Shown here piece by piece: positions 1-28,187 of a stretch of DNA of 64,000 nt. The notes under the pieces are model-generated. The model ran no database searches. It saw only the letters and a list, made by a program, of their open reading frames with translations, and was not told the origin of the DNA. Position 1 is the first letter of the stretch. Every line of letters begins with the position of its first letter. Made by a program: the position numbers and the translations under genes. The stretch is from a virus, in IMG/VR virus record IMGVR_UViG_3300044624_001054, positions 32,001 through 96,000 of that record. One strand, given 5' to 3'.

Positions 1-51
1 CGCTGAACGAGTTCATCCGTAAGTACGCTAAGACCTTGGTGGAGGTGTAAC

Positions 52-495
52 ATGATTGACCCTAGCATGACTGACATTCATCCTTACCCGCCAACTATGC
101 AGGAGTTGGAGTTGCGGGTCATCGAACTGAATACAGAGATCAACCGTCTGACTTCAGAGGTAGAGGCTATACAGAGTGACCGTGACTACTGGAGGGGCCA
201 GACGAACTATCGTCAGGCCCAGATTGACGGTCTTGAGTCATATCTCAAGGAGAACTTTGACTACATTGATGAGAATGTGACGCAGGAACTTGTTGATATC
301 TTCTCTCTTACTATCACCAGGGACTATGATGTGACAATCACCGTCACATTCTCTGGTGTTGTTACTGCTCCTCTCAATTTCGATATGGATAGCCTTGAGG
401 ATTCTCTGAATGCTAGTCTTGAGGCATCCTACTACGGAGATGTAGAGGCAGACTTCTCAGAGGATCATATGGAGATTGACTGGACAGAGAGTTAG
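52..495 (+). CDS. Hypothetical protein, N-terminal coiled coil and very acidic C-terminus
   Basis: 147-aa ORF preceded by a GGAGG RBS. Confidence 0.75.
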   Translation: MIDPSMTDIHPYPPTMQELELRVIELNTEINRLTSEVEAIQSDRDYWRGQTNYRQAQIDGLESYLKENFDYIDENVTQELVDIFSLTITRDYDVTITVTFSGVVTAPLNFDMDSLEDSLNASLEASYYGDVEADFSEDHMEIDWTES

Positions 496-527
496 GCAGC
501 GGTGGTATCCTAACTACGCCTCCGCCC

Positions 528-563
528 TGCAGACCTGAGCATGTCTTGCATAATAAACTGCTC
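528..563 (+). ncRNA. tRNA-leader pseudoknot motif, copy 1
   Basis: Stem AGAC/GTCT around loop CTGAGCAT; loop GAGCA pairs with TGCTC (559-563) after AAAC; ends 3 nt before tRNA-Glu. Confidence 0.75.
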
Positions 564-566
564 ACG

Positions 567-639
567 GCTCCCATCGTCTAGAGGCCAAGGACGCCGCCCT
601 TTCAAGGCGGTAGCACGGGTTCGAATCCCGTTGGGAGTA
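567..639 (+). tRNA. tRNA-Glu(TTC)
   Basis: Acceptor GCTCCCA/TGGGAGT, anticodon arm CCGCC-CT TTC AA-GGCGG, T loop GTTCGAATC; CCA not encoded. Confidence 0.95.
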
Positions 640-642
640 CAA

Positions 643-704
643 CCCCTGGAGAGAATGTGCGGAATCCGCCACCAACCCCACCATTCCGCTTCCCTCTCCA
701 GGGG
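643..704 (+). other. Long hairpin directly 3' of tRNA-Glu
   Basis: CCCCTGGAGAG/CTCTCCAGGGG plus GCGGAAT/ATTCCGC, with a C/A-rich loop. Confidence 0.7.
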
Positions 705-711
705 CCTAGTC

Positions 712-755
712 GGGCGGGGGGAAGTTGACGGTCTCCTTCCCCCTGCCTTGTTTTA
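712..755 (+). terminator. Rho-independent terminator
   Basis: GGCGGGGGGAAG...CTTCCCCCTGCC followed by TTGTTTT. Confidence 0.7.
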
Positions 756-860
756 TCGGCCCGGCCCGAAAAATTTAATCTGTCAAGCATTTACGATCTC
801 TCTTTTACGATCACGGGAATTTGTTACCAGAAATTTATCTAAATAATCTGCTAGATATTC

Positions 861-889
861 TTGAGACTGTCAGACCTAGGGTGTATAGT
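861..889 (+). promoter_or_regulatory. SigA-type promoter with internal TGTCAGACC box
   Basis: TTGAGA-N17-TATAGT, upstream of an AAGGAG RBS and the DUF932 gene. Confidence 0.65.
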
Positions 890-923
890 TCTTCTATAAG
901 TTCAATCAACTAAGGAGATACAT

Positions 924-1919
924 ATGGCACACGCAGTAGAGGTTGGCGCTAACGGAGAGCAGGCTTTTGCTTCCTTCCGCGAACCCGCTTGGCATGGTCT
1001 TGGTACCGTGTTCTTTGAGGAGAAGTCCACCCGCGAGATGCTGGATGCGGCTTACCTTTCTAACTGGGACGTTCGCCTTGAGGCCGTTCCTTACCCTTCC
1101 GACTACAATGTGATCACGCCTTCCTACATGGTACTGCGTGATAACCCCTTTGACCAGGGAACTGACGTTCTCGCTACCGTTGGCGAGCGTTACCACGTTC
1201 TTCAGAACGAGGATCTTTTCGACTTTGGTGATGCGCTGCTTGACGGTGGTCGCTGGGAGACCGCTGGCTCTATTCGCCAGGGTCGCGTTGTGTTCGGCTC
1301 GCTTGCGCTTGAGCGTGAGACTGTCCTTGATCCCAACGGCGTTTCGGATGTTGTGAAGTCCTACCTTCTCGTCCACACCTCGCATGACGGTTCTACCGCT
1401 GTGCAGGCTTCCATCACTCCCGTCCGCGTTGTGTGCCAGAACACTCTGAACATGGCTCTTCAGGGTGTGAAGCAGTCCTTCAAGATTCGTCACACGCAGA
1501 CTGTCGGTGGCAAGGTTATGGCTGCACGCGAGGCTCTTGCTCTCGCAAACACCTACCTGGATGAGTTCGACAAGGAGGCCAAGGCTCTCATCGCCAAGGA
1601 TATCACCAAGGCCAAGTTCGATGCCATCGTGCAGGCTGTCTACCCTCGCCCTGAGGCTGATGCCAAGGGTGCTGTCAAGAAGTGGGAGAACAAGGTCGAT
1701 CTCATTGAGGAGATTTGGACCTCTGACACCAACAACATGATCGCTACCACCGCGTGGGGTGCGTTCAATGCAATGACGGAGCGCCTTGACTGGTTCCGCA
1801 AGGGTCGTGGCGAGCGGGGTGCTGAGAATGTTCTCGCTGCTGCTAGTGGTTTCGATCCTGTCACCAATGCGGAGAAGGGTCGCATCCTGAAGGCTGTCAA
1901 GGAGATCGCTTTCGCGTAA
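924..1919 (+). CDS. DUF932 / TIGR03299-type phage-plasmid protein
   Basis: Motifs PAWHGLG, ETAGS, SHDGS, TPVRVVCQNTL, IRHT, TAWGAFNAMTE; strong RBS. Confidence 0.85.
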   Translation: MAHAVEVGANGEQAFASFREPAWHGLGTVFFEEKSTREMLDAAYLSNWDVRLEAVPYPSDYNVITPSYMVLRDNPFDQGTDVLATVGERYHVLQNEDLFDFGDALLDGGRWETAGSIRQGRVVFGSLALERETVLDPNGVSDVVKSYLLVHTSHDGSTAVQASITPVRVVCQNTLNMALQGVKQSFKIRHTQTVGGKVMAAREALALANTYLDEFDKEAKALIAKDITKAKFDAIVQAVYPRPEADAKGAVKKWENKVDLIEEIWTSDTNNMIATTAWGAFNAMTERLDWFRKGRGERGAENVLAAASGFDPVTNAEKGRILKAVKEIAFA

Positions 1920-1923
1920 TCAA

Positions 1924-1951
1924 ACATCCTGGGCATGATGTAAAACTGCCT
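1924..1951 (+). ncRNA. tRNA-leader pseudoknot motif, copy 2
   Basis: ACATC-CTGGGCAT-GATGT-AAAAC-TGCCT; ends 4 nt before a tRNA-like gene. Confidence 0.75.
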
Positions 1952-1955
1952 GCAC

Positions 1956-2023
1956 GCCACCCGCGCTGGGCGCAGACGAGATTCCAACCCTTGTCGTGCA
2001 GAGTTCGATTCTTTGGGGTGGTG
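1956..2023 (+). tRNA. Atypical tRNA-Trp(CCA)-like RNA with minimal D-arm
   Basis: Acceptor GCCACCC/GGGTGGT; D-arm GCGC-TGG-GCGC; stem GACGAG/CTTGTC with central CCA; T-arm CAGAG-TTCGATT-CTTTG. Confidence 0.65.
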
Positions 2024-2027
2024 CTTG

Positions 2028-2100
2028 GCACTTGTAGAGTAGCGGTTATCTCGCCACCCTGTCACGGTGGAGATCGTGGGTTCGAATCCCATCAGGTGCG
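2028..2100 (+). tRNA. tRNA-Asp(GTC)
   Basis: Acceptor GCACTTG/CAGGTGC, anticodon arm CCACC-CT GTC AC-GGTGG, T loop GTTCGAATC. Confidence 0.95.
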
Positions 2101-2191
2101 CTTGACAAATCTAAGAATTTGGGGCCGGGCCGTCCAAGAATATTCTAAGACTCTTTTACGATCTTCTTACGAAAGTCACAGGAATTTTCGC

Positions 2192-2220
2192 TGGAATATG
2201 TCAGACCCACATGCTACGCT
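2192..2220 (+). promoter_or_regulatory. Promoter with TGTCAGACC box and extended -10
   Basis: TGTCAGACC at 2199; TGcTACGCT at 2212-2220; same spacing as the 861-889 promoter. Confidence 0.55.
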
Positions 2221-2245
2221 TTATGTATTCGACAGAAGGAGCATT

Positions 2246-2458
2246 ATGAACATCTACGGCATAACAGAAGAAGATATGGCCTCTCCGACCTTTCCCAACG
2301 AGAATGATATTCTTGCATCTATCGTCAAGAACATGAAGGATATTCTAGATGGTGAGTGTGAGCGACCTGATATTGCTGCCCTTGCCGTGTCGATAGACTT
2401 CTTTGTCTTAGATCACTACATGCGTAATGGACGCATCCCTACTGCTTGGAGGAACTAA
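2246..2458 (+). CDS. Hypothetical protein
   Basis: ATG after an AGAAGGAG RBS; the longer track ORF from 1991 overlaps tRNAs. Confidence 0.7.
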   Translation: MNIYGITEEDMASPTFPNENDILASIVKNMKDILDGECERPDIAALAVSIDFFVLDHYMRNGRIPTAWRN

Positions 2459-2682
2459 TGGCAACCATCACATTCTCAGTAGAACTTATCTACGAGGGAA
2501 CTGGTCACTTCATGGATTTTGAATATGACTATGAGACTTGGGATGATATGGCCACCGAGGAAGCGGAAGCATTGGCTGACGATCTTGCTAGTGGTCGTAA
2601 CCCTGAGTTGTTCAATGAGATCATGGCTAACATTTCTATTGTCCCCACCGTTGAGAATGTGGTGGCTGATGAATCTGAATGA
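2458..2682 (+). CDS. Small acidic hypothetical protein
   Basis: TAATG coupling, GGAGG RBS. Confidence 0.7.
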   Translation: MATITFSVELIYEGTGHFMDFEYDYETWDDMATEEAEALADDLASGRNPELFNEIMANISIVPTVENVVADESE

Positions 2683-2989
2683 TGTTGAGACTGGTTGCTA
2701 CATTGACGGTAGTCATCGTGATTCCATCGAATTCTCTTTGCTAGTTATCGAAATGGCTCATGACTATGGATTTGAGTTGGATTGGGACCAGTTTGTCAAG
2801 GATGCCGCCAACATGCGCGATCCTGGTTACATGATGGAAGAGGACGAACTGAACGAGGTTCTAGATGCTATTGAATGGACGTATGAGGATGCGCTAGACT
2901 ATCTCAACATCAACACCCGCGAGCCTTTGATGTGGGTGGTAAGAGACCAGAGTTTGTTTCTTATGACATATGATGAGGCTGATGACTAA
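2669..2989 (+). CDS. Acidic hypothetical protein
   Basis: Start MNLNDVETG inside track ORF 2519..2989; operon packing. Confidence 0.7.
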   Translation: MNLNDVETGCYIDGSHRDSIEFSLLVIEMAHDYGFELDWDQFVKDAANMRDPGYMMEEDELNEVLDAIEWTYEDALDYLNINTREPLMWVVRDQSLFLMTYDEADD

Positions 2990-3054
2990 ACACCATAGTT
3001 ATATACTTTAGCAGGTATATCTATGCTAATTCACACAACTATGTATCTGGAGGA

Positions 3055-3264
3055 ATGATGCTAGCCAGTAATATGCTTACCAAAGATCAGATGCTAGAGC
3101 AGTATGAGGTTCTAGGATTTGCTTATGGCATGTGTGTAGTCAAGCGCATGTCTGATGGTGTGAAGGGGACATTGGATTTTGGAGATCATCCTATCCTCCG
3201 TCCCGAGGATTCTTCCAACCCGCTTGGCTATACTCGTTACTACTACAACTTTGTGGAGGCGTGA
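3055..3264 (+). CDS. Hypothetical protein
   Basis: GGAGG RBS; coupled to the next ORF. Confidence 0.65.
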   Translation: MMLASNMLTKDQMLEQYEVLGFAYGMCVVKRMSDGVKGTLDFGDHPILRPEDSSNPLGYTRYYYNFVEA

Positions 3265-3395
3265 TGAGTAACATTGTATGTTACTTCAATCCAGAATTCG
3301 CTGGTAAGTTTATTGCCAACTGGCTTGACCCCGCCATGTTTGACGACTATACTCTAGATATTGTTGATGATTGCCTAGTGCTTAGGGAGAAGTGA
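3264..3395 (+). CDS. 43-aa hypothetical protein (MSNIVCYF...)
   Basis: Hand-translated; TGATG coupling at both ends. Confidence 0.6.
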   Translation: MSNIVCYFNPEFAGKFIANWLDPAMFDDYTLDIVDDCLVLREK

Positions 3396-3526
3396 TGGAT
3401 GTTTCGGTAGAGGTTCAGAATGTTAGTTTCATTATTGACGCAGAGGATGAGAGCGAGGCTATCGCTAGGGTAGAGGAGTTTCTCCAGGAGTACGCCTGGG
3501 ACTGGACCCAGCCCTACGCGGGATAA
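3395..3526 (+). CDS. 43-aa acidic hypothetical protein (MDVSVEVQ...)
   Basis: Hand-translated; TGATG coupling, GGGAG RBS. Confidence 0.6.
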   Translation: MDVSVEVQNVSFIIDAEDESEAIARVEEFLQEYAWDWTQPYAG

Positions 3527-3529
3527 CTG

Positions 3530-3658
3530 ATGAAACACACATTCATTGTAACGGTAGAGTGCGAAGAAGCAGCAGACGCTTTGCTTGTAATGGGCGAGCG
3601 TTTGGACTATGATGAGGACTATGGATTCCCCTACTCAGTAGATTGGAAGTGGAAGTGA
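3530..3658 (+). CDS. 42-aa hypothetical protein (MKHTFIVT...)
   Basis: Hand-translated; fills the operon gap. Confidence 0.6.
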   Translation: MKHTFIVTVECEEAADALLVMGERLDYDEDYGFPYSVDWKWK

Positions 3659-3828
3659 AACAATATCGTATTGTCCTGCCCCTGGAAGTATGGGGAGAGT
3701 TTGAGGATGACGAGGATCATGAGTTTATCAAGGAAGTCCTAGGAGATAAGTTGGACGGACTCTTGATTTCTACCGACTACCTGTGGGATTATTGGAAAGA
3801 CGCCAAAGTCGAACCTATGGAGGGCTAA
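3655..3828 (+). CDS. Small acidic hypothetical protein
   Basis: GTGA overlap with the preceding stop. Confidence 0.6.
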   Translation: MKQYRIVLPLEVWGEFEDDEDHEFIKEVLGDKLDGLLISTDYLWDYWKDAKVEPMEG

Positions 3829-4181
3829 TGACTAATATCACCATGCACCTTACTGCTAACTTTTACCCGCCCATTCCCGCTGACATTCAGATGCGCGTGC
3901 AGGAGATTTTCGATGAGTTGCAGCGCGACTCCGATCCATATATTCTAGGCTGGGCAGACGTTCCCGAGAATTGGGACTATGACGTATCTGATGAGTCTGT
4001 GTTTGATCGCACCTATGAGTTGCCGAATGGCGCGGTAGTGACAGGACGTAGCCTACTTGATGATCTGCGCCTGTGGGATGCCCTGTGGTGGGACTGTGAT
4101 GAGCCTATGGACACTCTCGCAGACTACGAGCGTGAGCAGAAAGAATATGCAGGCCAACTATCATTTTGGACGGTGGAGTAA
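3828..4181 (+). CDS. Acidic, Trp-rich hypothetical protein
   Basis: TAATG coupling, GGAGG RBS. Confidence 0.7.
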   Translation: MTNITMHLTANFYPPIPADIQMRVQEIFDELQRDSDPYILGWADVPENWDYDVSDESVFDRTYELPNGAVVTGRSLLDDLRLWDALWWDCDEPMDTLADYEREQKEYAGQLSFWTVE

Positions 4182-4411
4182 TGAAGGTTAGATTTCTAGA
4201 GATTGACTGTGGACCAGGCGGTACAGTATGGGAGTTGCACGCTAACACCCATGAGCATCTTAGGACATATGACAGCGAGGCGGCTATGCTGAATGATGCT
4301 GCCCTACTTAGAATGGTCAATGTAGATTATAGATTCTACACTCAGGCTGAATATAACCTAGAGGTACAAGTAGAGATCATGACAGAGAATGGGGCATGGA
4401 ATGAACGATAG
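4181..4411 (+). CDS. Hypothetical protein
   Basis: TAATG coupling, GGAG RBS. Confidence 0.65.
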   Translation: MKVRFLEIDCGPGGTVWELHANTHEHLRTYDSEAAMLNDAALLRMVNVDYRFYTQAEYNLEVQVEIMTENGAWNER

Positions 4412-4655
4412 AGAGTATCTAAGAAGTTTGGGATTTGAGGTAGGTGATCGTGGTCGGTACTCTAAGGAGATGAAGGCTGCCCTTGCTACCCGCGACGGAG
4501 TAGATCCTGATGCCCCCGCTTCTGAGTATGGTGCTAATGATAGGTTCGCGGACGGTCGGTATCGTGTAGAGCGATCCAATGGTCTTCCAAGGACACCAGA
4601 CGTTCCAGGTATTGACTTTGGCCCTGGACTTGCGGTATCATCGACACGGAGGTAA
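4401..4655 (+). CDS. Lsr2-like DNA-binding domain protein
   Basis: REYLRSLGFEVGDRGRYSKEM matches the Lsr2 C-terminal RGR (AT-hook-like) pattern. Confidence 0.65.
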   Translation: MNDREYLRSLGFEVGDRGRYSKEMKAALATRDGVDPDAPASEYGANDRFADGRYRVERSNGLPRTPDVPGIDFGPGLAVSSTRR

Positions 4656-4658
4656 AAC

Positions 4659-4937
4659 ATGGAGGATAAGGTATCCAAACAGATATTGTCAGGCTTTGCA
4701 GATAGTAGGCTCAATCCCTCACATCTTGCATGGCTTGTCAAGTTGCATACAACGCCACAGATCGACAATATGCTAAAGGAGTTCTTCTATTATTACACCG
4801 TGTTCCGCAATCAGGATACAGAAGAAAACGATGCACGATGGATGGGAGAGAAGTTGATGAATGACCTACGAAATCCAGACTATGATGGTCTAAGCAATCC
4901 TCCTCCCCCTGGTACACGCATAGTGTTTGCAGATTAG
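4659..4937 (+). CDS. Hypothetical protein
   Basis: GGAGGT RBS. Confidence 0.7.
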   Translation: MEDKVSKQILSGFADSRLNPSHLAWLVKLHTTPQIDNMLKEFFYYYTVFRNQDTEENDARWMGEKLMNDLRNPDYDGLSNPPPPGTRIVFAD

Positions 4938-4941
4938 ACAT

Positions 4942-4969
4942 ACTTCCTGGGCATGAAGTTAAACTGCCC
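4942..4969 (+). ncRNA. tRNA-leader pseudoknot motif, copy 3
   Basis: ACTTC-CTGGGCAT-GAAGT-TAAAC-TGCCC; ends 3 nt before tRNA-Tyr. Confidence 0.75.
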
Positions 4970-4972
4970 CTA

Positions 4973-5052
4973 GCCTCGCAGCCCCCAAGGTGGGGGAGCG
5001 GTCTGTAAAACCGTCGCCATTGGCACGCTTGGTTCGATTCCAAGGCGGGGCA
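4973..5052 (+). tRNA. tRNA-Tyr(GTA)
   Basis: Acceptor GCCTCGC/GCGGGGC, anticodon arm GCGGT-CT GTA AA-ACCGT, long variable arm, T-arm CTTGG-TTCGATT-CCAAG. Confidence 0.88.
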
Positions 5053-5080
5053 CTTGACAAATCGATTCGGGCGTGCCGGG

Positions 5081-5555
5081 CTATCCACAAGTTATCCACA
5101 ATACCTTTACGAACCTATTACGAACGATCACGGAAAAATCACAGGAATTTTTAAGACATTAAATTTTATTAATGTCACACACATATGATAGGATGGCACA
5201 TGGAAATTTTATTATGTATTATCATAGGGCTATTATGGCTAGGATTATTCACTCCACCGCCCCGCGATTAGCGGCGGCGGTGTGTCATTTATATCCCCTA
5301 TATAACTATGTAAACAATAGGGTAAATACCTATCATTTCTGATAATATATCTTCAACTTTTGATAACTTTTATGTCAAAAGTATTACGATCCGACCATAA
5401 AAAATCACTGGAATTTTTGGCATATTCGCCTATATTTATCTAATTAGACATTACGAACGCGCCTAAAAAATCACTGGAATATTTACCTTAAAATATTCTC
5501 ATATACACGAAGTTATCCACAGGTTATCCACCATTACGATCCCGCCTGTGGATAT
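5081..5555. promoter_or_regulatory. Cluster of DnaA-box-like 9-mers; candidate origin or DnaA-binding region
   Basis: TTATCCACA at 5092 and 5513; one-mismatch boxes at 5081, 5524 and 5547 (reverse). Confidence 0.6.
5200..5271 (+). CDS. 23-aa hydrophobic micropeptide, probably leaderless
   Basis: MEILLCIIIGLLWLGLFTPPPRD; ATG lies 5 nt after a TGaTAGGAT -10 element. Confidence 0.55.
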   Translation: MEILLCIIIGLLWLGLFTPPPRD

Positions 5556-5817
5556 CTCTCCATATAACAGTAAGATAACATTCAATTCTATAAATGCGTA
5601 CGTTTTACATAACATCAATGTCTTTTGGTAGAAAGTGGATCAAGGTGGGACCTTGTGGGGACCACCTTTGACGCTATATCAGGCATGTAGGGGAATGTTT
5701 TTTATAGGTAAATATACGGGATAGCCCATATGTTTATTCCTATGTCTTATTACTAGTGTTGTTATTATATAGGTAAGGGGGAAGACTCCCACTACTACCG
5801 CCGCCAAAATTATTGGC

Positions 5818-5943
5818 TCATGCCTTCCCATATTTAGTCTTGCAAGGATCGCACCATTTGGTGGATACGAACTTCTTGTCTACACTCCATTTAATCATGC
5901 AGGAATACTCAGCATGTTTGGTAGCAGTACAGGTACTAGTCAT
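5818..5943 (-). CDS. 41-aa Cys-containing hypothetical protein
   Basis: Hand-translated MTSTCTAT...WCDPCKTKYGKA. Confidence 0.45.
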   Translation of the reverse strand: MTSTCTATKHAEYSCMIKWSVDKKFVSTKWCDPCKTKYGKA

Positions 5944-6018
5944 GCAAAATCCTTAGTCTAAGATATTATCCATGTCTTCACAGATTTGTTCGAAATCATT
6001 CATGATGCTTCCAATCGT

Positions 6019-6144
6019 TCATGCTACTTCATTCTTAGTAGTTTCATCAAATGGTTCGTCATCGAACTCTATGTCAAAGTCTATGAGAGCATCAGCAATA
6101 TAATCAAGAAACTCTTCTACTCTATTTCTCAGATAGTCCATCAT
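6019..6144 (-). CDS. Small acidic hypothetical protein
   Basis: GGGAGG RBS before MMDYLRN. Confidence 0.55.
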   Translation of the reverse strand: MMDYLRNRVEEFLDYIADALIDFDIEFDDEPFDETTKNEVA

Positions 6145-6222
6145 TGTTCTTCCTCCCAAGACAAATATAGCATATTTCCCCATCCCAAGGAGGGCCATCC
6201 TCAAAGCAGTTATGTTCTTCCA

Positions 6223-6429
6223 TTACATTACAATATCATGGCGATGTGCTTCTAGCCACCGCTCCACTTTCCTATTCAGTCCCCACCACGACAGGGCATA
6301 GATTCGCTTCATGGGGTGTCCGCAGACCCAATCCCAATCGGGATAAATTTCTGCGTATTTCACTCCCATAAAGATCGAATGATTTACCCTGTTATATATT
6401 ACCTTGTACATATCTTCCCTGTTCATCAT
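6223..6429 (-). CDS. Hypothetical protein
   Basis: ORF track; start adjusted. Confidence 0.55.
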   Translation of the reverse strand: MMNREDMYKVIYNRVNHSIFMGVKYAEIYPDWDWVCGHPMKRIYALSWWGLNRKVERWLEAHRHDIVM

Positions 6430-6479
6430 TACCCCCAATAACATATTGTGCGGGTGTTTCTACTTTCGGCTTTCGATTT

Positions 6480-6650
6480 TTACTTTCCGCGATACTTGCT
6501 GCGAAGTGGTGGCTTTAGTCCAGCCTTTACACATTGTGCGTAGGCTTGCCCATACTTCTTCTCAGAGCCCTCGCCAGCCTTGCCGCCCGTCTGCTTCTTT
6601 ACGTCTTTGCTTGCAATCTCTAGATCCCTTAGAAGATCCTCGTTGTTCAT
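6480..6650 (-). CDS. 56-aa basic hypothetical protein
   Basis: Hand-translated MNNEDLL...YGQAYAQCVKAGLKPPLRSKYRGK. Confidence 0.55.
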   Translation of the reverse strand: MNNEDLLRDLEIASKDVKKQTGGKAGEGSEKKYGQAYAQCVKAGLKPPLRSKYRGK

Positions 6651-6822
6651 TAGTTTACCTTTCTAGATAAGTGGTCATATTTCTCTGCCGCCGCTATTGC
6701 AACCCTTGCCAGATCATACCAAGTTTTAGCATTTGTTTTATATGCATTCATCAATACACTTGCTATGTATTCTACCTTGTCTATAGGCTCCTGTAAAGAA
6801 ATGTCAGCCTCTTCATGGATGC

Positions 6823-7023
6823 TCATAACAACTTCTCCTTCAATTCTGCTATGAGTCCTTGTATGGTGTCACATGACTCATGCCGCCACCAAAGATCGCA
6901 ATAATCATTATGTGTAGTTTGACACATAAGGCTACGCAAATCTATGATTAATCTATTATACACCTCACGTTCAACAGATGAAGTGTCTAATTCCTCGGAG
7001 CATTGCCAGCATCTAACGCTCAT
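6823..7023 (-). CDS. Hypothetical protein with CxxC
   Basis: ORF track. Confidence 0.55.
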   Translation of the reverse strand: MSVRCWQCSEELDTSSVEREVYNRLIIDLRSLMCQTTHNDYCDLWWRHESCDTIQGLIAELKEKLL

Positions 7024-7191
7024 ATTTTTTATTTAAGTATTCATTGTAAGCGTTGATTGCTATTCCTGCATCAAGCATGGCGATCTCAGCCCAGTTCTTA
7101 CCATCGTCTGAGTTAATCCAGTCTGAATCATTATATCTTTTGGGGAACCATGACTTCATCAAGGCCTCCGCCACATGAGTTAAACCTGGCA

Positions 7192-7767
7192 TTAGATTTC
7201 CTTTAGTCCCTTTAAAGGTTTGCCTGCCTTAATATTAGCCATGTTAGAAAGAGTATTGGTAACAACTTCTAGCGTGGTAAGAACATTAATGTACATATCT
7301 TCTGGGTGCCAAGGGGTATCTGTGCCGCCGCCATAAGTATCGTCAAACGCTACACGAAGAATCTCAAAGAATTCTTCTGCAGTAACATAGTATGCCGTCC
7401 AGGGATAATTACTAAAAGAAACGCTGGACTCAGCCGTCTTGTTATTTTTCTGAATCTGAATATTATAATCATCAAACTTGTTTGTTGTAGTAGTTGATGA
7501 AGTAGTGTAGGTAACAGTAGGGTTCATGTCCATATCCTTTCGTAATGAATTCCAAATTAATGTAAGATCATCCGCCGAACACCAAAGTTCTTTAGACCCA
7601 CCGCTCCAAAGCGGCGTATTAAATTTTACTAGATAATCTCTGGAAGTACTTTTATTATCTCTTCCAGGAACAAATTTGATAACTGTCCCCCTATGATTTG
7701 TTTCAAGGGAGGGATTTTTAAAGTTTACAATATCTCCAGGCTTTGGGATATATTTATATTCAGTCAC
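7192..7767 (-). CDS. Hypothetical protein
   Basis: ORF track; AAGGAG RBS; GTGA overlap. Confidence 0.65.
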   Translation of the reverse strand: MTEYKYIPKPGDIVNFKNPSLETNHRGTVIKFVPGRDNKSTSRDYLVKFNTPLWSGGSKELWCSADDLTLIWNSLRKDMDMNPTVTYTTSSTTTTNKFDDYNIQIQKNNKTAESSVSFSNYPWTAYYVTAEEFFEILRVAFDDTYGGGTDTPWHPEDMYINVLTTLEVVTNTLSNMANIKAGKPLKGLKEI

Positions 7768-8246
7768 TTAAACTCCTTGTGTGTAGGCCAGTAGTAAGTG
7801 CATTTTCCTGGACAGCATACATACTCCTGGTAGATTTCATATTCTGCGCGATACTGTGGGTATAGGTCTGGGGCTTTTTCATATAGCCGACCTCGGTGGG
7901 TAGTAAGGACATGATGAAATGTATTGTTATCAAGCATCCATGAAGGTGCGCTAGTATCCGACCATACATTGCCATCGGCCATCCTTTGAATTTCATACCA
8001 GTTTTTTTCCCACTTATAATCTCGCCGCTGCATCTCCCTACGGATAGCATTTAGATAATAGTACAGAGTAATAGAGTGATTGTCAAACATTCTGACTGCT
8101 GGATGATTGCGCCAAGCGTTAGACTTAGACTCGCCAACTAAGATAGTCATAATCTGACGGCCTTCAAGGAGTTGTTTGACTAGACGTTTGGTATCTAGTT
8201 GTTGGGCAGTATAATCAAAGTCTGATTCTGGTAGAAATACCTGCAT
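7764..8246 (-). CDS. Pyrimidine-dimer DNA glycosylase / endonuclease V-like (MSMEG_6728-type) protein
   Basis: MQVFLP..LDTKRLVKQLLE..WRNHPAVRM..H..L..K.P..Y pattern. Confidence 0.75.
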   Translation of the reverse strand: MQVFLPESDFDYTAQQLDTKRLVKQLLEGRQIMTILVGESKSNAWRNHPAVRMFDNHSITLYYYLNAIRREMQRRDYKWEKNWYEIQRMADGNVWSDTSAPSWMLDNNTFHHVLTTHRGRLYEKAPDLYPQYRAEYEIYQEYVCCPGKCTYYWPTHKEFK

Positions 8247-8421
8247 ATCATGAATTACTTTCTCTAGTTGCTGCTGCAAGGGCTAATGTAGCAAACACCT
8301 GTGCGGCTGCATACATTCCAATTTCGGCAAAGTGCATAGCCTTCTTCTCGTACTCAGTACTGCGAGTCATTATACTTATCCTGAAACTTCATCTCAAAGT
8401 AGTCATCGATTCCGTCCATTA

Positions 8422-8877
8422 TTACTCCCATCCTGGAACTACTGTGGTTGGAATATTATTTTCTTGCCATAGTTTGATAATGCTGGGGTTGTCATCCCAC
8501 GCATGAATTATATCGTAGGCGTTACGGAGCGTGTCAAGCATATCTTTCTTGACCTCATAGTCTTTGCGATTGTCCTCGTCCCCGCGCATCATTAGCATAT
8601 CGCTAGGAACCTCATGCATTGCCAGCCACCAAGCAGTATGATTCCGCCACATATGCTTACGGGCTGTAACAACTAGTACCTCATGTCCTAGCATATGTGC
8701 CATCTGAGCAGCATTTACCACATGATCATGTGCAGGAACGTTTACAGACTCAGCATGGAACTTATTAAAGTGTTTGATGACTCTACGTTTTGTATTATCG
8801 TATTTAGTTAGATGATGACGAATGGATGACACATCTGCTAGGGTGCCATCCATATCAAATATGACTGCCGTTCTCAC
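8422..8877 (-). CDS. HAD phosphatase, polynucleotide kinase 3'-phosphatase-like
   Basis: FDMDGTL, VTAR, MR..DNRKD..VK, WDDNP motifs. Confidence 0.8.
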   Translation of the reverse strand: MRTAVIFDMDGTLADVSSIRHHLTKYDNTKRRVIKHFNKFHAESVNVPAHDHVVNAAQMAHMLGHEVLVVTARKHMWRNHTAWWLAMHEVPSDMLMMRGDEDNRKDYEVKKDMLDTLRNAYDIIHAWDDNPSIIKLWQENNIPTTVVPGWE

Positions 8878-9065: not shown

Positions 9066-9307
9066 CGATCACTTCTTTCGTATAGAAATTATACGGCGGA
9101 CATTACTAGGAGATTTATCCTCATCATCCCACAGCCATTCCCATGGGTTGATTTCATCACCATTATTCCAATCGAACATGGGGAGATAGGACTTCATAGA
9201 TACCTCCAATTAGCGAGATCTTTTATTATTTACTTGCCTTTTTTGTTTCATTAGACGTTCAATTTCTTCGTCTAGATCTTCTTCTTCATCGTAATCGTAA
9301 GTTGTGT

Positions 9308-10318
9308 TCATAATTGTAGCCACTCTGGATTATCCAGAGTCCATTTTACCGTTCTCTCTAAAGATTCTTCAAGTGATAGGGGTGCCTTCCACCCTGTACC
9401 AGCAATTTTAGCACCGTCCAAAGCATAACGCAAGTCATGTCCTGGACGAGATGAGTGGAAATCTACTAGTTCATAGTTTAATTCATTTCCAACAAAACTA
9501 GCAACCATTTGAGCCATCTCTAAATTATCCATCTCTCTCTCGCCAACAACATGGAATTTTTGAGGGGCCTGAGACTCTCCATAGACTGGCGTAGGCTGGT
9601 TCAGGGCATGGAGTAGGGCATCTGCCTGGTTCCTAGCATGAAGATAATATCTACTGCCAATCTGTCCAGTTGGAGAAGCATGGATAGCCATTTTATCTCC
9701 AGCCAAAACCTTCTTAATGGTCATAGGGATGAACTTCTCTGGGTCCTGCATCTCACCAATGATGTTCATGGTGTTGGTGATAATTAGAGGTACACCATAT
9801 GTCCTCCAATATGAATAGGCAATTGACTCTTGGGCAGCCTTAGATGCAGAGTATGGATTGCTTGGGAAGTACTGATCCATCCATTCACGGTGGGCATGGC
9901 CTACAGGAGCAGGGCCATAGACTTCATCAGTAGACACATGCAAAAACTTCTCAATGTCTGAGAATCTTGCCCACTCTAGCATATTACAAACTAGAGATAC
10001 ATTATTCTCAATGAAAGGGACTGGCTCTGTAATAGACCTATCAACATGCGAGTCGCTAGCAACGTTAAGAACATAGTCAATCTTGCCAATCTCATGAGAT
10101 AGGACAGGAGAGATAGGGGCAGTAAGGTCATGCTTAAGAACCTTTACCCTCTTAAAGTCATCATCGTATCCTGCCACCGCCAGACGAATTCTGTCTGTTA
10201 TTCCACGGTGTCGAAAAGATACCAAACAAACTACATTCCAGTCTGTGTTGGCAAGAATGTGACGCAATACATGGCTGCCAACAAATCCGCTAGCACCAGT
10301 TAGAAGTACAGTAGTCAT
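9308..10318 (-). CDS. rmlB: dTDP-glucose 4,6-dehydratase-like extended SDR
   Basis: TGASGFVG, SHVDRSI, STDEVYG, YSASK, PEKFIP, RPGHDLRYALD. Confidence 0.85.
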   Translation of the reverse strand: MTTVLLTGASGFVGSHVLRHILANTDWNVVCLVSFRHRGITDRIRLAVAGYDDDFKRVKVLKHDLTAPISPVLSHEIGKIDYVLNVASDSHVDRSITEPVPFIENNVSLVCNMLEWARFSDIEKFLHVSTDEVYGPAPVGHAHREWMDQYFPSNPYSASKAAQESIAYSYWRTYGVPLIITNTMNIIGEMQDPEKFIPMTIKKVLAGDKMAIHASPTGQIGSRYYLHARNQADALLHALNQPTPVYGESQAPQKFHVVGEREMDNLEMAQMVASFVGNELNYELVDFHSSRPGHDLRYALDGAKIAGTGWKAPLSLEESLERTVKWTLDNPEWLQL

Positions 10319-10372
10319 TAATTTCCAATCGTTTTCATTATTATGACATTATTCATAGCCATATGTCAATAC

Positions 10373-11239
10373 TTATATCCAGCCTTTAATGGCTCTTTTA
10401 ATTCCGTCTTCAAGGGAGATCTGAGGAGTATATACCTTAAGCATATTTGTGTTATCTGAAACTCTATACATAACTCCTACTGGTTCTGCTGGTAAGTGGC
10501 GAAAGGTTGGCTCATAGCCGACTATTTTTGCTACTAGTTCAGCAAATTCATTAAATGAAACTGCCTCAGAGTTGCCAAGATTTAGGGGCTGTAAGTAATC
10601 TTGAGTGATAGCGGCATCTACAGCCTTTACGATATCTATGATATGAATGAAATCACGAACTTGTGTTCCATCTCCCCAGATATCAAATGGATCTGCTCTG
10701 TCCACACCTCGCTTGATATAGGATGGAAAGGGGTAGGAAAGATCTTGATCTGTGCCGTATCCAGAGAAAGGTCTAAATACATGAACCTTAATCCCTTCTG
10801 CTTGAGCAAACTGAGCAAGATATTCTCCCGTTAATTTTGCCCAACCATAAGTAAGGTCTGGGTTAGATACGTTTGTTAGATCTATATCTGATTCTTTTAG
10901 TTTAATATTAGACCCAGAAGTCTGCAATTTAATTGGATAGGCAGCGGAACTAGAGAAGTATACAACTCTTCCTGGGCGAGTAAGAAGCACCCATTGGAAG
11001 AAATCACTATCTATTGCTAGATCTGTTGCAACACTAAGAGGATTGCCTTCAATAGTTTTCCTGCCGCCTACTATCGCGGCTAAATGAATTACAAGATCAT
11101 AATACTCTCTGTTTACTTTAAAGAAATCTCTACAGTCATTACCACTTTTGATATCAATAATTGTTAGATCATGATCTTTATAGTGCATCTGGAAATATTT
11201 TCCAACAAACCCCTCACCACCAGTAATTAGTATCTTCAC
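10373..11239 (-). CDS. NAD-dependent sugar epimerase/dehydratase
   Basis: TGGEGFVG, HLAA, SSSAAY, YGWAK, WGDGTQVRDFIH. Confidence 0.88.
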   Translation of the reverse strand: MKILITGGEGFVGKYFQMHYKDHDLTIIDIKSGNDCRDFFKVNREYYDLVIHLAAIVGGRKTIEGNPLSVATDLAIDSDFFQWVLLTRPGRVVYFSSSAAYPIKLQTSGSNIKLKESDIDLTNVSNPDLTYGWAKLTGEYLAQFAQAEGIKVHVFRPFSGYGTDQDLSYPFPSYIKRGVDRADPFDIWGDGTQVRDFIHIIDIVKAVDAAITQDYLQPLNLGNSEAVSFNEFAELVAKIVGYEPTFRHLPAEPVGVMYRVSDNTNMLKVYTPQISLEDGIKRAIKGWI

Positions 11240-11895
11240 ATATCTACCTTAAACTTATTTAATTCATCTGCAATGTTGTACATAAGATACTGCTCCCAAG
11301 CAATTTTGTCATTATCATTCATGGCAGCGCTGTTAACTTCTTTATAAAGTTCATCTGCATTAGATTTACCTACAGAATAATGCATATGTTCTATGGTTAC
11401 GTCTGAGTAATACTGTAGTGTATTAAGTCTACGACCTAACTCCATCCAGAAATTATCTAAATAAAGATGTTTCATCTTTGGCGGAGCCATGTAGCCTAGA
11501 GTTCTAATAATATTAGAGTCCAGCATAGCGGCTGTAGCAAGACGCTCTCCCTGAATTAAATCATTTCCATAAGAAACAGTATTCTTCTTAGCATGACGCA
11601 TGAAGATTTTGTCCCAGCCTGAAGTTCTAATTCTATGATCATCGCCCATGAATGTAATGTAGTCGTACTGATCGGAGTACTTATTGGCAACCAAATTTAG
11701 CGTTCCATTCATTCCTTTTCTATCATTTACTTCCCAGATTACATCGTCATACCGCTCTGAATAATTTTGTGCATCATCAGAATCGATGGCAAAACATAGG
11801 GTGGTTTGATCTGAAGTATTCTGGACAAAGGAATCATAGAATTCCGCTGCATTATGTGGTCGCGATCTTGTTGGAACTATTAACAGGTTTTTCAT
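11236..11895 (-). CDS. Glycosyltransferase, GT-A/family 2-like
   Basis: IVPTRSR N-terminus, FMGDD (DxD-like), LYLDN..IEHMH. Confidence 0.75.
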   Translation of the reverse strand: MKNLLIVPTRSRPHNAAEFYDSFVQNTSDQTTLCFAIDSDDAQNYSERYDDVIWEVNDRKGMNGTLNLVANKYSDQYDYITFMGDDHRIRTSGWDKIFMRHAKKNTVSYGNDLIQGERLATAAMLDSNIIRTLGYMAPPKMKHLYLDNFWMELGRRLNTLQYYSDVTIEHMHYSVGKSNADELYKEVNSAAMNDNDKIAWEQYLMYNIADELNKFKVDM

Positions 11896-12680
11896 TAATA
11901 TCCTAACTTCTTCTTTTCATTTTCAGTAGACGACCAAGTATGAGTATTCTTATAGAAATCATACTCTTCTTCCGTCATCGGTTGCTTTTCCCACCAACCC
12001 ATGTGGCGACAGGTAAATCTCCCAGCAATTCTAATTGCACTTGTATTACATGTCATTCTACCAGGGACATGATCTATTTCTTCAAGGAATTTATCTCTAT
12101 TATAGAGAGAAAATGTCGTATCAATCGGGGCGGCGTACAAATCGTCTACCTCTGGTAACTGATCAACCTTTCTAGACCAGTAACTTCTTTCCCATAGATC
12201 CACTTGATTGGGATTAAAAAATCTTTCTCTTTCTTCTGGTGTGTCAATGTCTATTGCGAGGCCAACCTTTGACACGCCGTACATATCAACGATCCTTCTC
12301 ATTTTATCAATTGCATTATGAGGCATTTGCTCGTTGAATAATAAATCTGGATCTGTCACGATGAAATACTTGGGCATCCGTGAACAGATATCTTTATTTT
12401 CTGTGTAGTATCTTGGGCCATGGTTTTCTGACCAACGAACTACATGATATTTTTGTGATAGTTTTTCTAATAAATCTATCATTGGCGGGTAAGATGAATT
12501 ATTATCGCATATGATAATATTCGTCCACCCACGACTCTCTAGTTGATCAATCATAGACTTAAGATACGTTGGTGCATTGAACGTTGGGATAATAATAGGT
12601 ACATCATCTGGAATAAGTGTTGATGAATCATTATCTTTCTGGTATTCCAGCGCAACCCTAATATCTTCATACATCGGCAT
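11895..12680 (-). CDS. Glycosyltransferase family 2-like
   Basis: IIIPTFN, ICDNNS, VTDPD. Confidence 0.75.
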   Translation of the reverse strand: MPMYEDIRVALEYQKDNDSSTLIPDDVPIIIPTFNAPTYLKSMIDQLESRGWTNIIICDNNSSYPPMIDLLEKLSQKYHVVRWSENHGPRYYTENKDICSRMPKYFIVTDPDLLFNEQMPHNAIDKMRRIVDMYGVSKVGLAIDIDTPEERERFFNPNQVDLWERSYWSRKVDQLPEVDDLYAAPIDTTFSLYNRDKFLEEIDHVPGRMTCNTSAIRIAGRFTCRHMGWWEKQPMTEEEYDFYKNTHTWSSTENEKKKLGY

Positions 12681-13291
12681 TATCTATTTTCTCCTAAAAC
12701 CTCTGGTATGTGGACGTATCCGTACTTTGAAATTATTTCTTCAAATAGAAAGCCGTCAGCAGAATGATCATACCTGTGCCAGCCGCCAATAGACTCCCAC
12801 GCTTTTTTACTAACAACACATTGTAAAAGATCAATCTTACCCATAACGGGAGGTATACCAGAAAAGTAATTTATGCCAAACTTCTCATGCTTACACGCAA
12901 AAACTACAACGTCTGCCTTTGTTTTATCTATTTTGTCGGATATCTTCTGCAACGCTTCTGGATATAATATATTATCTATATTAAAGTGTAGGATATATTC
13001 TCCAGCAGCCTGCTTGATTCCAAGATCTCTGGAGTGATGGCCCCATCCATATCCAGCATAAAACTGGTCTAAGCCATAGATTCCATAATGCTTTTCTGTG
13101 TTTATAAATCCAGTATTTTCTGGTACATCATCTAACTCATTATCATACGAGCCTTCTCTAGGTCCGTCATGAATAATTAATAGTTCAAAGTCTTTAAAAG
13201 TCTGATTGTTTAATGACTCTATGCCTTCACGCATTCTATCTCTTGGCACATGATTCTCAGCGTCAGTCGCAACTATTGTAAATCTTGTCAT
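12680..13291 (-). CDS. Glycosyltransferase family 2-like
   Basis: SLNNQTFKDFELLIIHDG, RDLGIKQAAGEYILHFNID. Confidence 0.8.
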   Translation of the reverse strand: MTRFTIVATDAENHVPRDRMREGIESLNNQTFKDFELLIIHDGPREGSYDNELDDVPENTGFINTEKHYGIYGLDQFYAGYGWGHHSRDLGIKQAAGEYILHFNIDNILYPEALQKISDKIDKTKADVVVFACKHEKFGINYFSGIPPVMGKIDLLQCVVSKKAWESIGGWHRYDHSADGFLFEEIISKYGYVHIPEVLGENR

Positions 13292-13292
13292 C

Positions 13293-13937
13293 TTATTCCT
13301 TAAAGTACCAGTCGTCCCATGCAGATAGTTCTTCAAGTATTCTAGTATACCCTTTAGATACCATCAGATCATATATTTTTTCTCTGCTGTCTGTGTAATT
13401 ATGCTCTATTGTGAATAGTTTAATGTCTTTATTGAATGAGAATGCTGAGAGGATATCAAATTCTGACCCCTCTGTATCTATAGATACATATTCTATAGTG
13501 CTAGGAGCATTGTGAAATTCTAATAAATCATCAAGGGACACCGTTTCTACCTCAAACTGTGTGCCCCGTTTTCTATTACTAGCCCACCTATCTGATTCCG
13601 TATAATCGGTAATGGTTGATAGTTCAGACATTTCATCAACAGATGTAAATGAAATAAGTTCTCCAGTTTTGGTATACACACAGCGATGATCTACTATGCA
13701 TTCTCTACTCTTTAGTGACTCATGAAAGATAGGATTTGGTTCTACTAAAATGCCCTTCCATCCATGATCTTTTTCTAAAAGATATGTATTAGAAATGTTT
13801 TCTGCGTCGGCGGCACCAAACTCAACAAAGAATCCGTTGTCTCCAAAAATACTGGCGACAAGAACATCCTGACCTAGTTGAGACTTGCGTTCTTTAGATT
13901 TTAGTTGATCTGAGATAAACTCTAGATTGATATTCAA
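13293..13937 (-). CDS. FkbM-family methyltransferase
   Basis: SQLGQD, FVEFGAAD, GWKGILVEPN, IDTEGSE. Confidence 0.85.
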   Translation of the reverse strand: MNINLEFISDQLKSKERKSQLGQDVLVASIFGDNGFFVEFGAADAENISNTYLLEKDHGWKGILVEPNPIFHESLKSRECIVDHRCVYTKTGELISFTSVDEMSELSTITDYTESDRWASNRKRGTQFEVETVSLDDLLEFHNAPSTIEYVSIDTEGSEFDILSAFSFNKDIKLFTIEHNYTDSREKIYDLMVSKGYTRILEELSAWDDWYFKE

Positions 13938-25268: not shown

Positions 25269-25612
25269 TACTTCCATGTCTCCTTAAGTGCAATACTCAA
25301 TAATACCAGATAACCCATCAGGTCGTCAAGGTCGTTCTCCTTAAAGGTATCATCCCCATTCATAAATCTAGATAGTTTATCATCTATACGAACCTTTATC
25401 TGTTCAGTTGTGTCTGATCGTGAAAATATTCTTACTGGGTTAAGCGCTGAGTTACCGTACGATCTATTCTTTTCTATAAGTAAAGAGGTTACTCTAGTAC
25501 ATTCATCTTGAATTGCCATCTCAACGGTGTTACGAGGAATTAATTGCACACCTTCTTTTATATCATCCATAATTTTCTCAGCATACATGCGCTGTAGGTC
25601 TTGTTCAATCAT
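25268..25612 (-). CDS. Nucleotide-modification-associated / dNTP pyrophosphatase-like helical protein
   Basis: KNRSYG...RIDDKLSR...DLMGY. Confidence 0.6.
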   Translation of the reverse strand: MIEQDLQRMYAEKIMDDIKEGVQLIPRNTVEMAIQDECTRVTSLLIEKNRSYGNSALNPVRIFSRSDTTEQIKVRIDDKLSRFMNGDDTFKENDLDDLMGYLVLLSIALKETWK

Positions 25613-25776
25613 TTTTTACCAAACTTTCTTAGGTCACGGATGAGATTATATTTTACTAAGTATCGATAGATAGTCTGATGACTTACCCCGCATTCTTTAG
25701 CAATCTCTTCTAAAGATTTTTTATCTACAAGATATCTTTTTGTAAGGAATGCTTTGTTTTCATATAATTTAGCCAT
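25609..25776 (-). CDS. 55-aa HTH DNA-binding protein
   Basis: Hand-translated; SLEEIAKECGVSHQTIYRYL. Confidence 0.75.
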   Translation of the reverse strand: MAKLYENKAFLTKRYLVDKKSLEEIAKECGVSHQTIYRYLVKYNLIRDLRKFGKK

Positions 25777-27997: not shown

Positions 27998-28187
27998 AAA
28001 CTAATCTAGCGCTTCCATCATGACCATTGGGGCAGGTCCAATAAACTTTCTTATTTGATGAATCATACATACCTGTGGTCGCCACTTCAAAGCAGCCTTG
28101 CTCTGGGCAAGAGAATGACCCACCTATTTCTTTAAACTTTGCATTAGATTTACTTGGAGCAGTAATAAAAGCCTTAGGGTCAATCAT
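27990..28187 (-). CDS. Small zinc-binding protein
   Basis: C...C and CPNGH. Confidence 0.6.
   Translation of the reverse strand: MIDPKAFITAPSKSNAKFKEIGGSFSCPEQGCFEVATTGMYDSSNKKVYWTCPNGHDGSARLVYE

Follow-up and report, generated by a model that had tools for sequence, protein, structure and literature searches.

Modular seams between early gene blocks in an uncultured, apparently actinobacterial phage

In a 64,000-nucleotide (nt) stretch of viral DNA, the same series of intergenic elements follows a stop codon three times: a pseudoknot, one or two tRNAs, a CTTGACA heptamer paired with a GC-rich box, TTACGA and TCACnGGAAT motifs, and a promoter-like sequence ahead of the next gene. The stretch (here the window) comprises bases 32001-96000 of the 106,615-base record IMGVR_UViG_3300044624_001054, whose completeness is estimated at 88%; negative coordinates denote DNA upstream of the window start in the same record (L001). 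Is this cassette a single device, as a preliminary description of the locus proposed, or an assembly of parts with separate histories? We find that the modules exist, that their order and motifs are conserved in relatives, and that gene blocks are permuted among these phages with junctions inside the repeated modules. Each cassette is probably a seam between two early transcription units, built from four independently recurring modules.

Element order and recurrence

The three sites form the right end of an early block of small open reading frames (ORFs) on the + strand, which extends from about window -8200 to 5270 and has - strand genes on both flanks. Every element listed in the preliminary description is present at its place in all three sites, as given here in order of position.

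493-495, +: stop codon of site 1, from the sequence.
531..564, +: H-type pseudoknot, copy 1; stem S1 pairs 531-534 with 543-546, stem S2 pairs 536-541 with 559-564.
567..640, +: tRNA-Glu (UUC), by ARAGORN; Rfam tRNA model 63.3 bits.
643..704, +: predicted, conserved hairpin 3' of tRNA-Glu; its C-rich loop of 19 nt is invariant, and three stem pairs differ in compensatory fashion between two sequence types.
712..757, +: predicted GC-rich hairpin followed by TTGTTTT, terminator-like.
758..787, either strand: inverted boundary module, GGCCCGGCCC (GC box, 758-767), 13 nt, TGTCAAG (781); a junction in L160-L163.
791..820, +: array unit, TTACGA (791)-N14-TCACGGGAAT (811-820), with an extra TTACGA at 805.
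861..889, +: putative promoter, TTGAGA, TGTCAGAC (868-875) and -10 TATAGT (884-889); about 100% conserved through the ATG in relatives.
924..1919, +: DUF932 gene, carried as payload by the block that sites 1 and 2 enclose (Pfam PF06067, E 1e-51; PHROG 1221); its start at 924 is the gene start after site 1.
1917-1919, +: stop codon of site 2, from the sequence.
1925..1952, +: pseudoknot, copy 2; S2 variant GGG/CCU is compensatory.
1956..2024, +: degenerate tRNA-Trp (CCA), 69 nt, reduced D arm; called by ARAGORN at a relaxed threshold only.
2028..2101, +: tRNA-Asp (GUC), by ARAGORN and the Rfam tRNA model.
2101..2131, either strand: boundary module CTTGACA-N15-GGCCGGGCC (heptamer at 2101, GC box 2123-2131); fold z +0.23, no significant hairpin.
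2156..2196, +: array, TTACGA (2156), N5, TTACGA (2167), TCACAGGAAT (2176-2185), CTGGAAT.
2199..2220, +: putative promoter, TGTCAGAC then TGcTACGCT, -10 at 2215-2220.
2246, +: gene start after site 2.
4935-4937, +: stop codon of site 3, from the sequence.
4943..4970, +: pseudoknot, copy 3, from the covariation alignment.
4973..5053, +: tRNA-Tyr (GUA), by ARAGORN.
5053..5081, either strand: boundary module CTTGACA (5053)-N15-GCCGGGC (5075-5081).
5082..5100, +: tandem DnaA boxes TATCCACA and TTATCCACA, conserved in L160 and L161.
5107..5148, +: four arrayed half-sites, spaced 11, 10 and 11 nt: TTACGA (5107), TTACGA (5118), TCACGG and TCACAGGAAT (5139-5148).
5173..5194, +: weaker putative promoter, TGTCACAC then TGaTAGGAT, -10 at 5189-5194, which would drive an apparently leaderless ORF.
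5200..5271, +: that ORF, 23 hydrophobic codons starting at 5200 (the gene start after site 3), followed by a GC hairpin; frame and hydrophobic character kept in L160 and L161.

Two qualifications apply to the threefold cassette of identical order that had been described. At site 1 the CTTGACA/GC-box pair is inverted, with the GC box preceding TGTCAAG, and two strong hairpins stand between tRNA-Glu and the box. Furthermore, the count of three holds only within the window, since the 15-kb early block contains seven or more occurrences of the DNA modules, four of them tRNA-free. The full DNA composite (CTTGACA, GC box, TTACGA, TCACnGGAA) has four copies genome-wide, at window -4257, -1259, 2101 and 5053, versus none in 100 genome shuffles. 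In the same shuffles the unit TTACGA-N13..16-TCACnG averaged 0.09 matches and the promoter pattern TGTCAG-N10-TAnnnT averaged 1.26; the genome holds 8 and 12, respectively, on the + strand and none of either on the - strand. Composites, units and promoter matches are all confined to the + strand of the early block. Between the motif blocks, which are invariant, the spacers have diverged as first described, with a mean column identity of 58%.

No tRNA or pseudoknot accompanies the composites at -4257 and -1259 or the partial one at -5131, which come after ordinary genes or a terminator. Most promoters are solitary, and this genome holds just three copies of the pseudoknot. The window sites are therefore four modules stacked together and no indivisible unit. 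The proposal of one integrated processing-plus-regulation system thus finds no support here, as its parts are separable.

We sampled relatives with the pattern TGTCAGACCC-N3-TG-N-TA, which yielded at least 120 stretches of viral contigs (over 100 contigs). Those listed are mostly 35-44% G+C and in many cases belong to contigs of 96-115 kb; where there are several copies, these usually share a strand. Around 626 promoter-like sites, among the matches listed, the upstream order is kept family-wide, with the following positions relative to the promoter.

-200 to -140: CTTGACA.
-140 to -100: GC box, as GCCCGCA or GGCCsGGCC.
-120 to -60: consensus DnaA boxes flanking TTACGR, then CnGGAAT.
-80 to -40: GTGA..TCAC palindrome, in 218 sites, then the promoter.

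Order and position are maintained even where the relatives' coding DNA has only about 65% identity. The present phage has a simplified layout: clustered consensus DnaA boxes, common in the relatives' cassettes, are left only at site 3 (5082-5100) and at 5513-5554, and sites 1 and 2 have none.

The RNA, boundary, array and promoter modules

The RNA module consists of the H-type pseudoknot, directly past the stop codon, and the one or two tRNAs that follow it after 3-6 nt. The pseudoknot covaries. A search for CCTGrGCAnG, a variable stretch and AAACTGCyCA returned 138 copies in the listed loci and this genome, 133 of them on the promoter strand. The S1 partners, which are the bases before CC and after G, take 62 sequence combinations and form a mean of 4.3 contiguous pairs, versus 2.0 for shuffled partners. 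When 73 distinct copies were aligned, 95.1% of cells were paired; shuffles reached 77.1%, with 0 of 500 attaining the observed value, and slid partners gave 27-37%. Changes on both sides were seen in three S1 pairs and two S2 pairs. An Rfam E-value scan of 1-8000 returned only tRNAs and chance matches, with no family for the pseudoknot or the hairpins.

We propose that this module is transcribed from the upstream promoter, that RNase P and RNase Z would excise the tRNA, and that the upstream mRNA would then end in the pseudoknot. Between stop codon and tRNA the pseudoknot is the only element, with no promoter-like site there. In the same set of loci a pseudoknot lies upstream of 32 of the 46 same-strand tRNAs; conversely, a tRNA follows within 40 nt of 32 of the 133 pseudoknots, and 26 of these are tRNA-Asp. 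At least four relatives without a pseudoknot (L035, L036, L067 and L107) have a GC hairpin and T run at the equivalent position before tRNA-Asp, a substitution compatible with a function at the upstream RNA's 3' end. The idea that tRNAs punctuate the early units accordingly survives in part. Each tRNA adjoins a coding region and has no promoter of its own, but tRNAs mark only 3 of about 13 boundaries: the three tRNA seams in the window, plus a tRNA-Leu, compare with about 13 promoters, and the composites at -4257 and -1259 are tRNA-free.

The tRNA-Trp at 1956-2024 was missed by ARAGORN and Rfam at default settings, under which ARAGORN nevertheless detects the homologues in L163, L166 and L167. 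Similarity to the window stops at 2030 in L163, L166, L167 and L168, and tRNA-Asp is thus not kept there. At site 1, the stretch 641-790 folds at -63.4 kcal/mol (z -3.6). We dropped the notion that stop codon, 8-nt spacer and pseudoknot form a readthrough signal, as the spacer is inconstant (about 35 nt at site 1) and a tRNA follows.

The boundary module has the general form CTTGACA-N15-GGCCsGGCC in either orientation. Genome-wide, there are five forward copies of CTTGACA-N15-GGCCGGGCC and two inverted ones, the latter reading GGCCCGGCC-N14-TGTCAAG; in relatives the heptamer may stand on both sides of the box. Because the box regions of sites 2 and 3 fold no better than shuffles, the module appears to behave as a double-stranded-DNA site. 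At sites 2, 3 and -4257, where the folds do not surpass shuffles, we rejected the GC box as a terminator. CTTGACA was likewise rejected as a -35 element, since no copy has TAnnnT 16-18 nt downstream and the motif also occurs inverted.

The array lies in one orientation. Its conserved core is TTACGA, 14-15 nt, then TCACnG(GAAT), and the two starts are 20-21 nt apart, two helical turns, in 6 of the 11 arrays of this phage. In this phage and close relatives, half-sites tend to be spaced 9-12, 19-21 or 33 nt apart, which points to sites on the same helix face. At site 1 in five relatives the first TTACGA and the TCAC are invariant, and the second TTACGA is lost in three; at site 2 in L161 and L164 the spacer has changed in sequence and lengthened from 5 to 6 nt, with the motifs unchanged. 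The distance from array to promoter ranges from 1 to 47 nt. In one copy of this phage (-4196) and many relatives, the unit brackets a canonical TTGACA-17-TAnnnT promoter. We rejected TTACGA itself as a -35 element; it has no suitably spaced -10 and sits 1-5 nt upstream of the true TTGACA in relatives. Motifs kept while spacers change, a single orientation and spacing suggestive of helical phase are all consistent with the protein-binding array suggested in the preliminary description, but no binder was identified. The arrays, with host-type DnaA boxes at site 3 and in most relatives, may serve as docking sites for at least one sequence-specific protein that would tune the adjacent downstream promoter. 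A 55-residue helix-turn-helix protein (window 25609-25776, - strand), with a weak match to sigma-70 region 4 (16.9 bits), is the sole candidate small DNA-binding protein seen.

One further array lies beyond the last seam.

5375..5560, +: orphan array of two TTACGA-N14/15-TCACTGGAAT units and three DnaA boxes (5513, 5524 and, inverted, near 5546), with no + strand gene downstream.

This non-coding stretch, at the convergence of + and - strand transcription, is almost invariant among the present phage, L160 and L161. The flanking DNA is 77-90% identical, and the array is conserved above the neighbouring genes in the three phages. We regard it as a candidate origin or other cis site.

The promoter module, TGTCAG-N10-TAnnnT, is laid out as the actinobacterial activator PafBC would read it together with sigma A. 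The in vivo PafBC consensus is tGTCgg(N10)tA(N3)T, read without a -35 element by sigma adaptation (PMC8635444), and the promoters of this phage match 5 of the 6 bases of its -26 element. Among the matches listed, TGTCAGTGG occurs in 148 of the 626 sites of the relatives. In 5 of this phage's 12 promoters (-5618, -4752, -3542, -3441 and -2142) an ATG lies exactly 6 nt past the -10 hexamer, and in the relatives' listed matches the ATG peaks at +6/+7, with 46 sites versus 1-4 at other offsets. This position suggests that the mRNAs are often leaderless, and independently supports these as real start sites. The 23-codon ORF is probably leaderless too, because it starts 5 nt after the site 3 -10. 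The claim of a fresh promoter at each cassette is thus upheld by the match to the published geometry and by the ATG enrichment; dependence of the phage promoters on PafBC itself we infer from the shared layout. TTACGATTACGA on the - strand at 9289 was set aside as coding sequence (YDYD). The early region of NootNoot, a cultured relative, has no promoter of the TGTCAG type. Genes for RecA, a pyrimidine-dimer DNA glycosylase and a PNKP-type phosphatase (window 28184-29191, 7764-8279 and 8422-8877) all lie on the - strand; damage and repair gene content here accompanies promoters laid out like DNA-damage promoters.

Exchange of gene blocks among relatives

We compared eleven closer relatives: ten in which gene 52-495 is 60-95% identical, plus one contig of 17 kb. 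Gene blocks are extensively permuted among them. In the clearest case, L160 and L163, the block 758-2132, containing the right half of site 1, the DUF932 gene, the pseudoknot, the tRNAs and CTTGACA, is placed upstream of the block starting at -1239, and both junctions lie within the GC box. The L160 junction of 2132 to -1239 falls inside GGCCGGGCC, and junctions at 758/759 occur in L160, L161, L162 and L163 with four different left partners. Two to four different left flanks are joined at the box to each of at least seven right-flank classes. Junctions also occur in the other repeats: a shared one from -4721 to -3515 joins the promoters at -4752 and -3542, and another from 822 to 2155 unites two TTACGA arrays. 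Altogether, 25 of the 89 rearrangement endpoints have a box or promoter no more than 15 nt away, compared with 7% of random positions.

The preliminary description had suggested a recombination scaffold for swapping gene blocks, and the comparison agrees with it: the blocks are permuted among relatives, and the precise junctions lie inside repeated elements. A search of the 88%-complete record for PF00589 and PF00239 gave no match, and hence neither integrase nor resolvase. With junctions in three kinds of repeat and a RecA encoded by the phage, homology-driven exchange is the simplest reading; we think that homologous recombination, for example by the phage RecA, would use the repeats as short homologies.

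Alternative explanations, host and known systems

Several points weigh against reading the cassettes as seams between transcription units. Transcription start sites, processing and termination are all read from DNA sequence. The relatives are non-independent samples. The site 3 promoter is degenerate, and its TGTCAC part is lost in L161. The link to RNase P is not general, since only 32 of 133 pseudoknots precede a tRNA, and the variable distance between array and promoter argues against a rigid activator geometry. The 88%-complete record yielded no OmpR-type domain, sigma-70 region 2, DnaA domain IV or repressor gene. The orphan array has neither a promoter nor a + strand gene downstream, and that copy may serve replication rather than transcription. 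Finally, only the tight junctions are strong evidence of recombination, because the ends of high-scoring segment pairs fall in intergenic DNA anyway.

The arrays could be given two other meanings. With their DnaA boxes they might be replication elements rather than operators, either iterons or an oriC-like mimic recruiting host DnaA and a second origin-binding protein, with the promoter-near copies acting as secondary origins or titration sites. Consistent with this, the orphan array is AT-rich, nearly invariant, placed at convergent transcription and equipped with three DnaA boxes, and DnaA-box pairs flank TTACGR in most relatives' cassettes. MtrA boxes (direct repeats GTCACAgcg) lie between DnaA boxes in the oriC of Mycobacterium tuberculosis (PMC4285127), and MtrA of Streptomyces coelicolor bound 6-bp direct repeats with a 5-nt spacer (PMC5650626), which is the geometry of TTACGA-N5-TTACGA; GTCACAG is present at site 2. 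This resemblance in sequence is short and partial, however, sites 1 and 2 have no DnaA box, and the arrays are strictly co-oriented with transcription and upstream of genes. In 151 genomes of one actinobacterial order the bipartite unit gave 2 matches versus 1 for the control, i.e., control level. We consider a replicative role for the arrays as a whole unlikely. Alternatively, the unit TTACGA-N14/15-TCACnGGAAT may itself be a promoter for an unrecognised phage sigma factor or an alternative host one, giving tandem early and middle promoters, and primer or non-coding transcripts at 5375-5560. A bipartite motif of fixed spacing, in a single orientation, always intergenic and upstream of genes, would suit such a role, as would the overlap with TTGACA-17-TAnnnT at -4196 and in some relatives. 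Yet the downstream part lacks the conserved A at -10 position 2, the extra half-sites in helical phase resemble protein-binding repeats, and the record has no match to sigma-70 region 2, the weak region 4 match of the 55-residue protein being the only one. We hold this to be improbable.

The junctions themselves might instead mark a dedicated site-specific recombination site, with the GGCCsGGCC box and its CTTGACA arm serving integron-like cassette excision and re-insertion. The box is palindromic around one central base, the arm stands at a fixed distance on either side or both, many independent flank combinations meet exactly at the 9-11 bp box, and two neighbouring blocks bounded by boxes have traded places in L160/L163 relative to this genome. 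Against this, a search of the record gave no tyrosine or serine recombinase, unlike integron-type cassette systems, and precise junctions also fall in promoters and TTACGA arrays, as homology-driven exchange predicts. Moreover, arm-plus-box copies share about 22 of 31 bases, sufficient for recombinase-assisted homologous exchange, and a dedicated site seems very improbable to us. We give hardly any credence to the notion that duplication and recombination have passively spread functionless repeats ahead of the promoters, leaving promoters and tRNAs as the only parts that matter. Modules at recombination junctions could indeed hitch-hike, and the second TTACGA is dispensable in relatives, but the motifs stay invariant while spacers vary in sequence and length, order and position persist at about 65% coding identity, and the orphan array is better conserved than the genes beside it. 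A more ambitious version of the seam model would make the seams a dedicated exchange-and-control system. The array would mimic oriC and recruit host DnaA and a second, MtrA-like host regulator of origin or cell cycle to PafBC-type promoters, tying early expression to three host DNA-status sensors, and CTTGACA/GGCCsGGCC would be a specialised crossover point that moves promoter-equipped blocks as units between phages. This we view as a long shot.

What kind of phage carries these seams? Encoded in the record are a tape measure protein of 3856 residues, a DnaE-type polymerase, DnaB helicase, DnaG primase, a large terminase and the phage's own RecA. A gene for a WhiB-family transcription factor lies inside the early block (L001:15106-15321, window -2894 to -2679; PF02467, E 2e-18), and the DnaE polymerase is 57% identical to a Streptomyces phage counterpart. 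Together with the many apparently leaderless mRNA starts, these features point to an actinobacterial host. A host search of bacterial genomes with the DnaA-TTACG-DnaA pattern gave 32 matches scattered over unrelated phyla, among which only two 1-kb contigs look phage-like. The scanned proteins include no repressor-like match, and the 88%-complete record no integrase or resolvase, so the phage looks lytic. It is apparently a lytic, siphovirus-like phage of roughly 107 kb with an actinobacterial host. We found no near-identical phage records.

The G+C content of window 1-2000 is 52.8%, with most other parts of the window at 35-43%, and the composition of the DUF932 gene region appears foreign or specially constrained. 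A search for a solved-structure relative of the DUF932 protein gave none. Elsewhere, window 9308-13937 (- strand) clusters two NAD-dependent sugar epimerase/dehydratases, two family-2 glycosyltransferases and an FkbM-type methyltransferase.

Punctuation of polycistronic transcripts by tRNAs is familiar from mitochondria and the tRNA region of phage T4. Here too the tRNAs adjoin coding regions and lack their own promoter, so that their excision would define mRNA ends; however, only 3 of about 13 seams have a tRNA, and the pseudoknot that precedes the tRNA also occurs tRNA-free. The L5-type stoperators of cluster A mycobacteriophages (PMC9283540) resemble the arrays as asymmetric sites in short intergenic gaps and promoters, oriented with transcription. 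The present site, by contrast, is bipartite and about 30 bp rather than a 13-mer, is confined to a 15-kb block, and belongs to a phage in which, unlike the L5 stoperator phages, we found neither repressor nor integrase. Both of these resemblances are partial, each failing a defining feature. With actinobacterial oriC (PMC4285127) the arrays share consensus DnaA boxes beside short direct repeats with (G)TCAC/TTAC in helical phase and, at 5290-5500, an AT-rich stretch; here, however, arrays are spread over many promoter-proximal sites, and the half-sites match only partly. PafBC-dependent (RecA-NDp) promoters (PMC8635444) have the same 22-nt layout of -26 element, N10 and TAnnnT with no -35 needed, whereas the phage copies mostly read TGTCAGACCC followed by an extended -10 TG, and one copy also has the -35-like TTGAGA.

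The closest known system is the promoter-early stem-loop (PeSL) cassette of T4-like phages, a small promoter/terminator composite through which recombination shuffles accessory genes (PMC2839356, PMC4122927). Both systems have composite boundary and early-promoter motifs in many copies among small accessory genes (here 12 promoters and at least seven boundary/array modules in about 15 kb of 30-330 codon ORFs), and in both the indel and shuffling junctions between related phages fall inside the motifs. Unlike PeSL, the present seams belong to a siphovirus-like phage with actinobacterial signals, of a lineage related to Streptomyces phages; their promoter is PafBC-type, not sigma-70, and has no relation to the T4-like early promoter motif. 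A seam here is much larger, at 130-300 nt, and adds the pseudoknot and tRNAs, the GC-box site and the array with DnaA boxes. A clear stem-loop terminator, as in PeSL, occurs only in some copies: all three sites have a promoter, but a strong hairpin is present only at site 1, -1259 and -5131. The present seams work like PeSL cassettes yet fall outside the PeSL family.

Taken together, these elements provide a concrete early-region grammar, made up of seam RNA, boundary site, operator array and PafBC-type promoter, for uncultured phages of about 100-115 kb, a large and widespread group for which we know of no cultured model. The short, defined elements (bipartite unit, GC box and pseudoknot) are directly testable. 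The exact junctions reveal how accessory blocks reshuffle, a process for which the PeSL cassettes of T4-like phages were previously the main documented example. That an actinobacterial-type siphovirus follows this logic too, with unrelated sequences, suggests a general solution.

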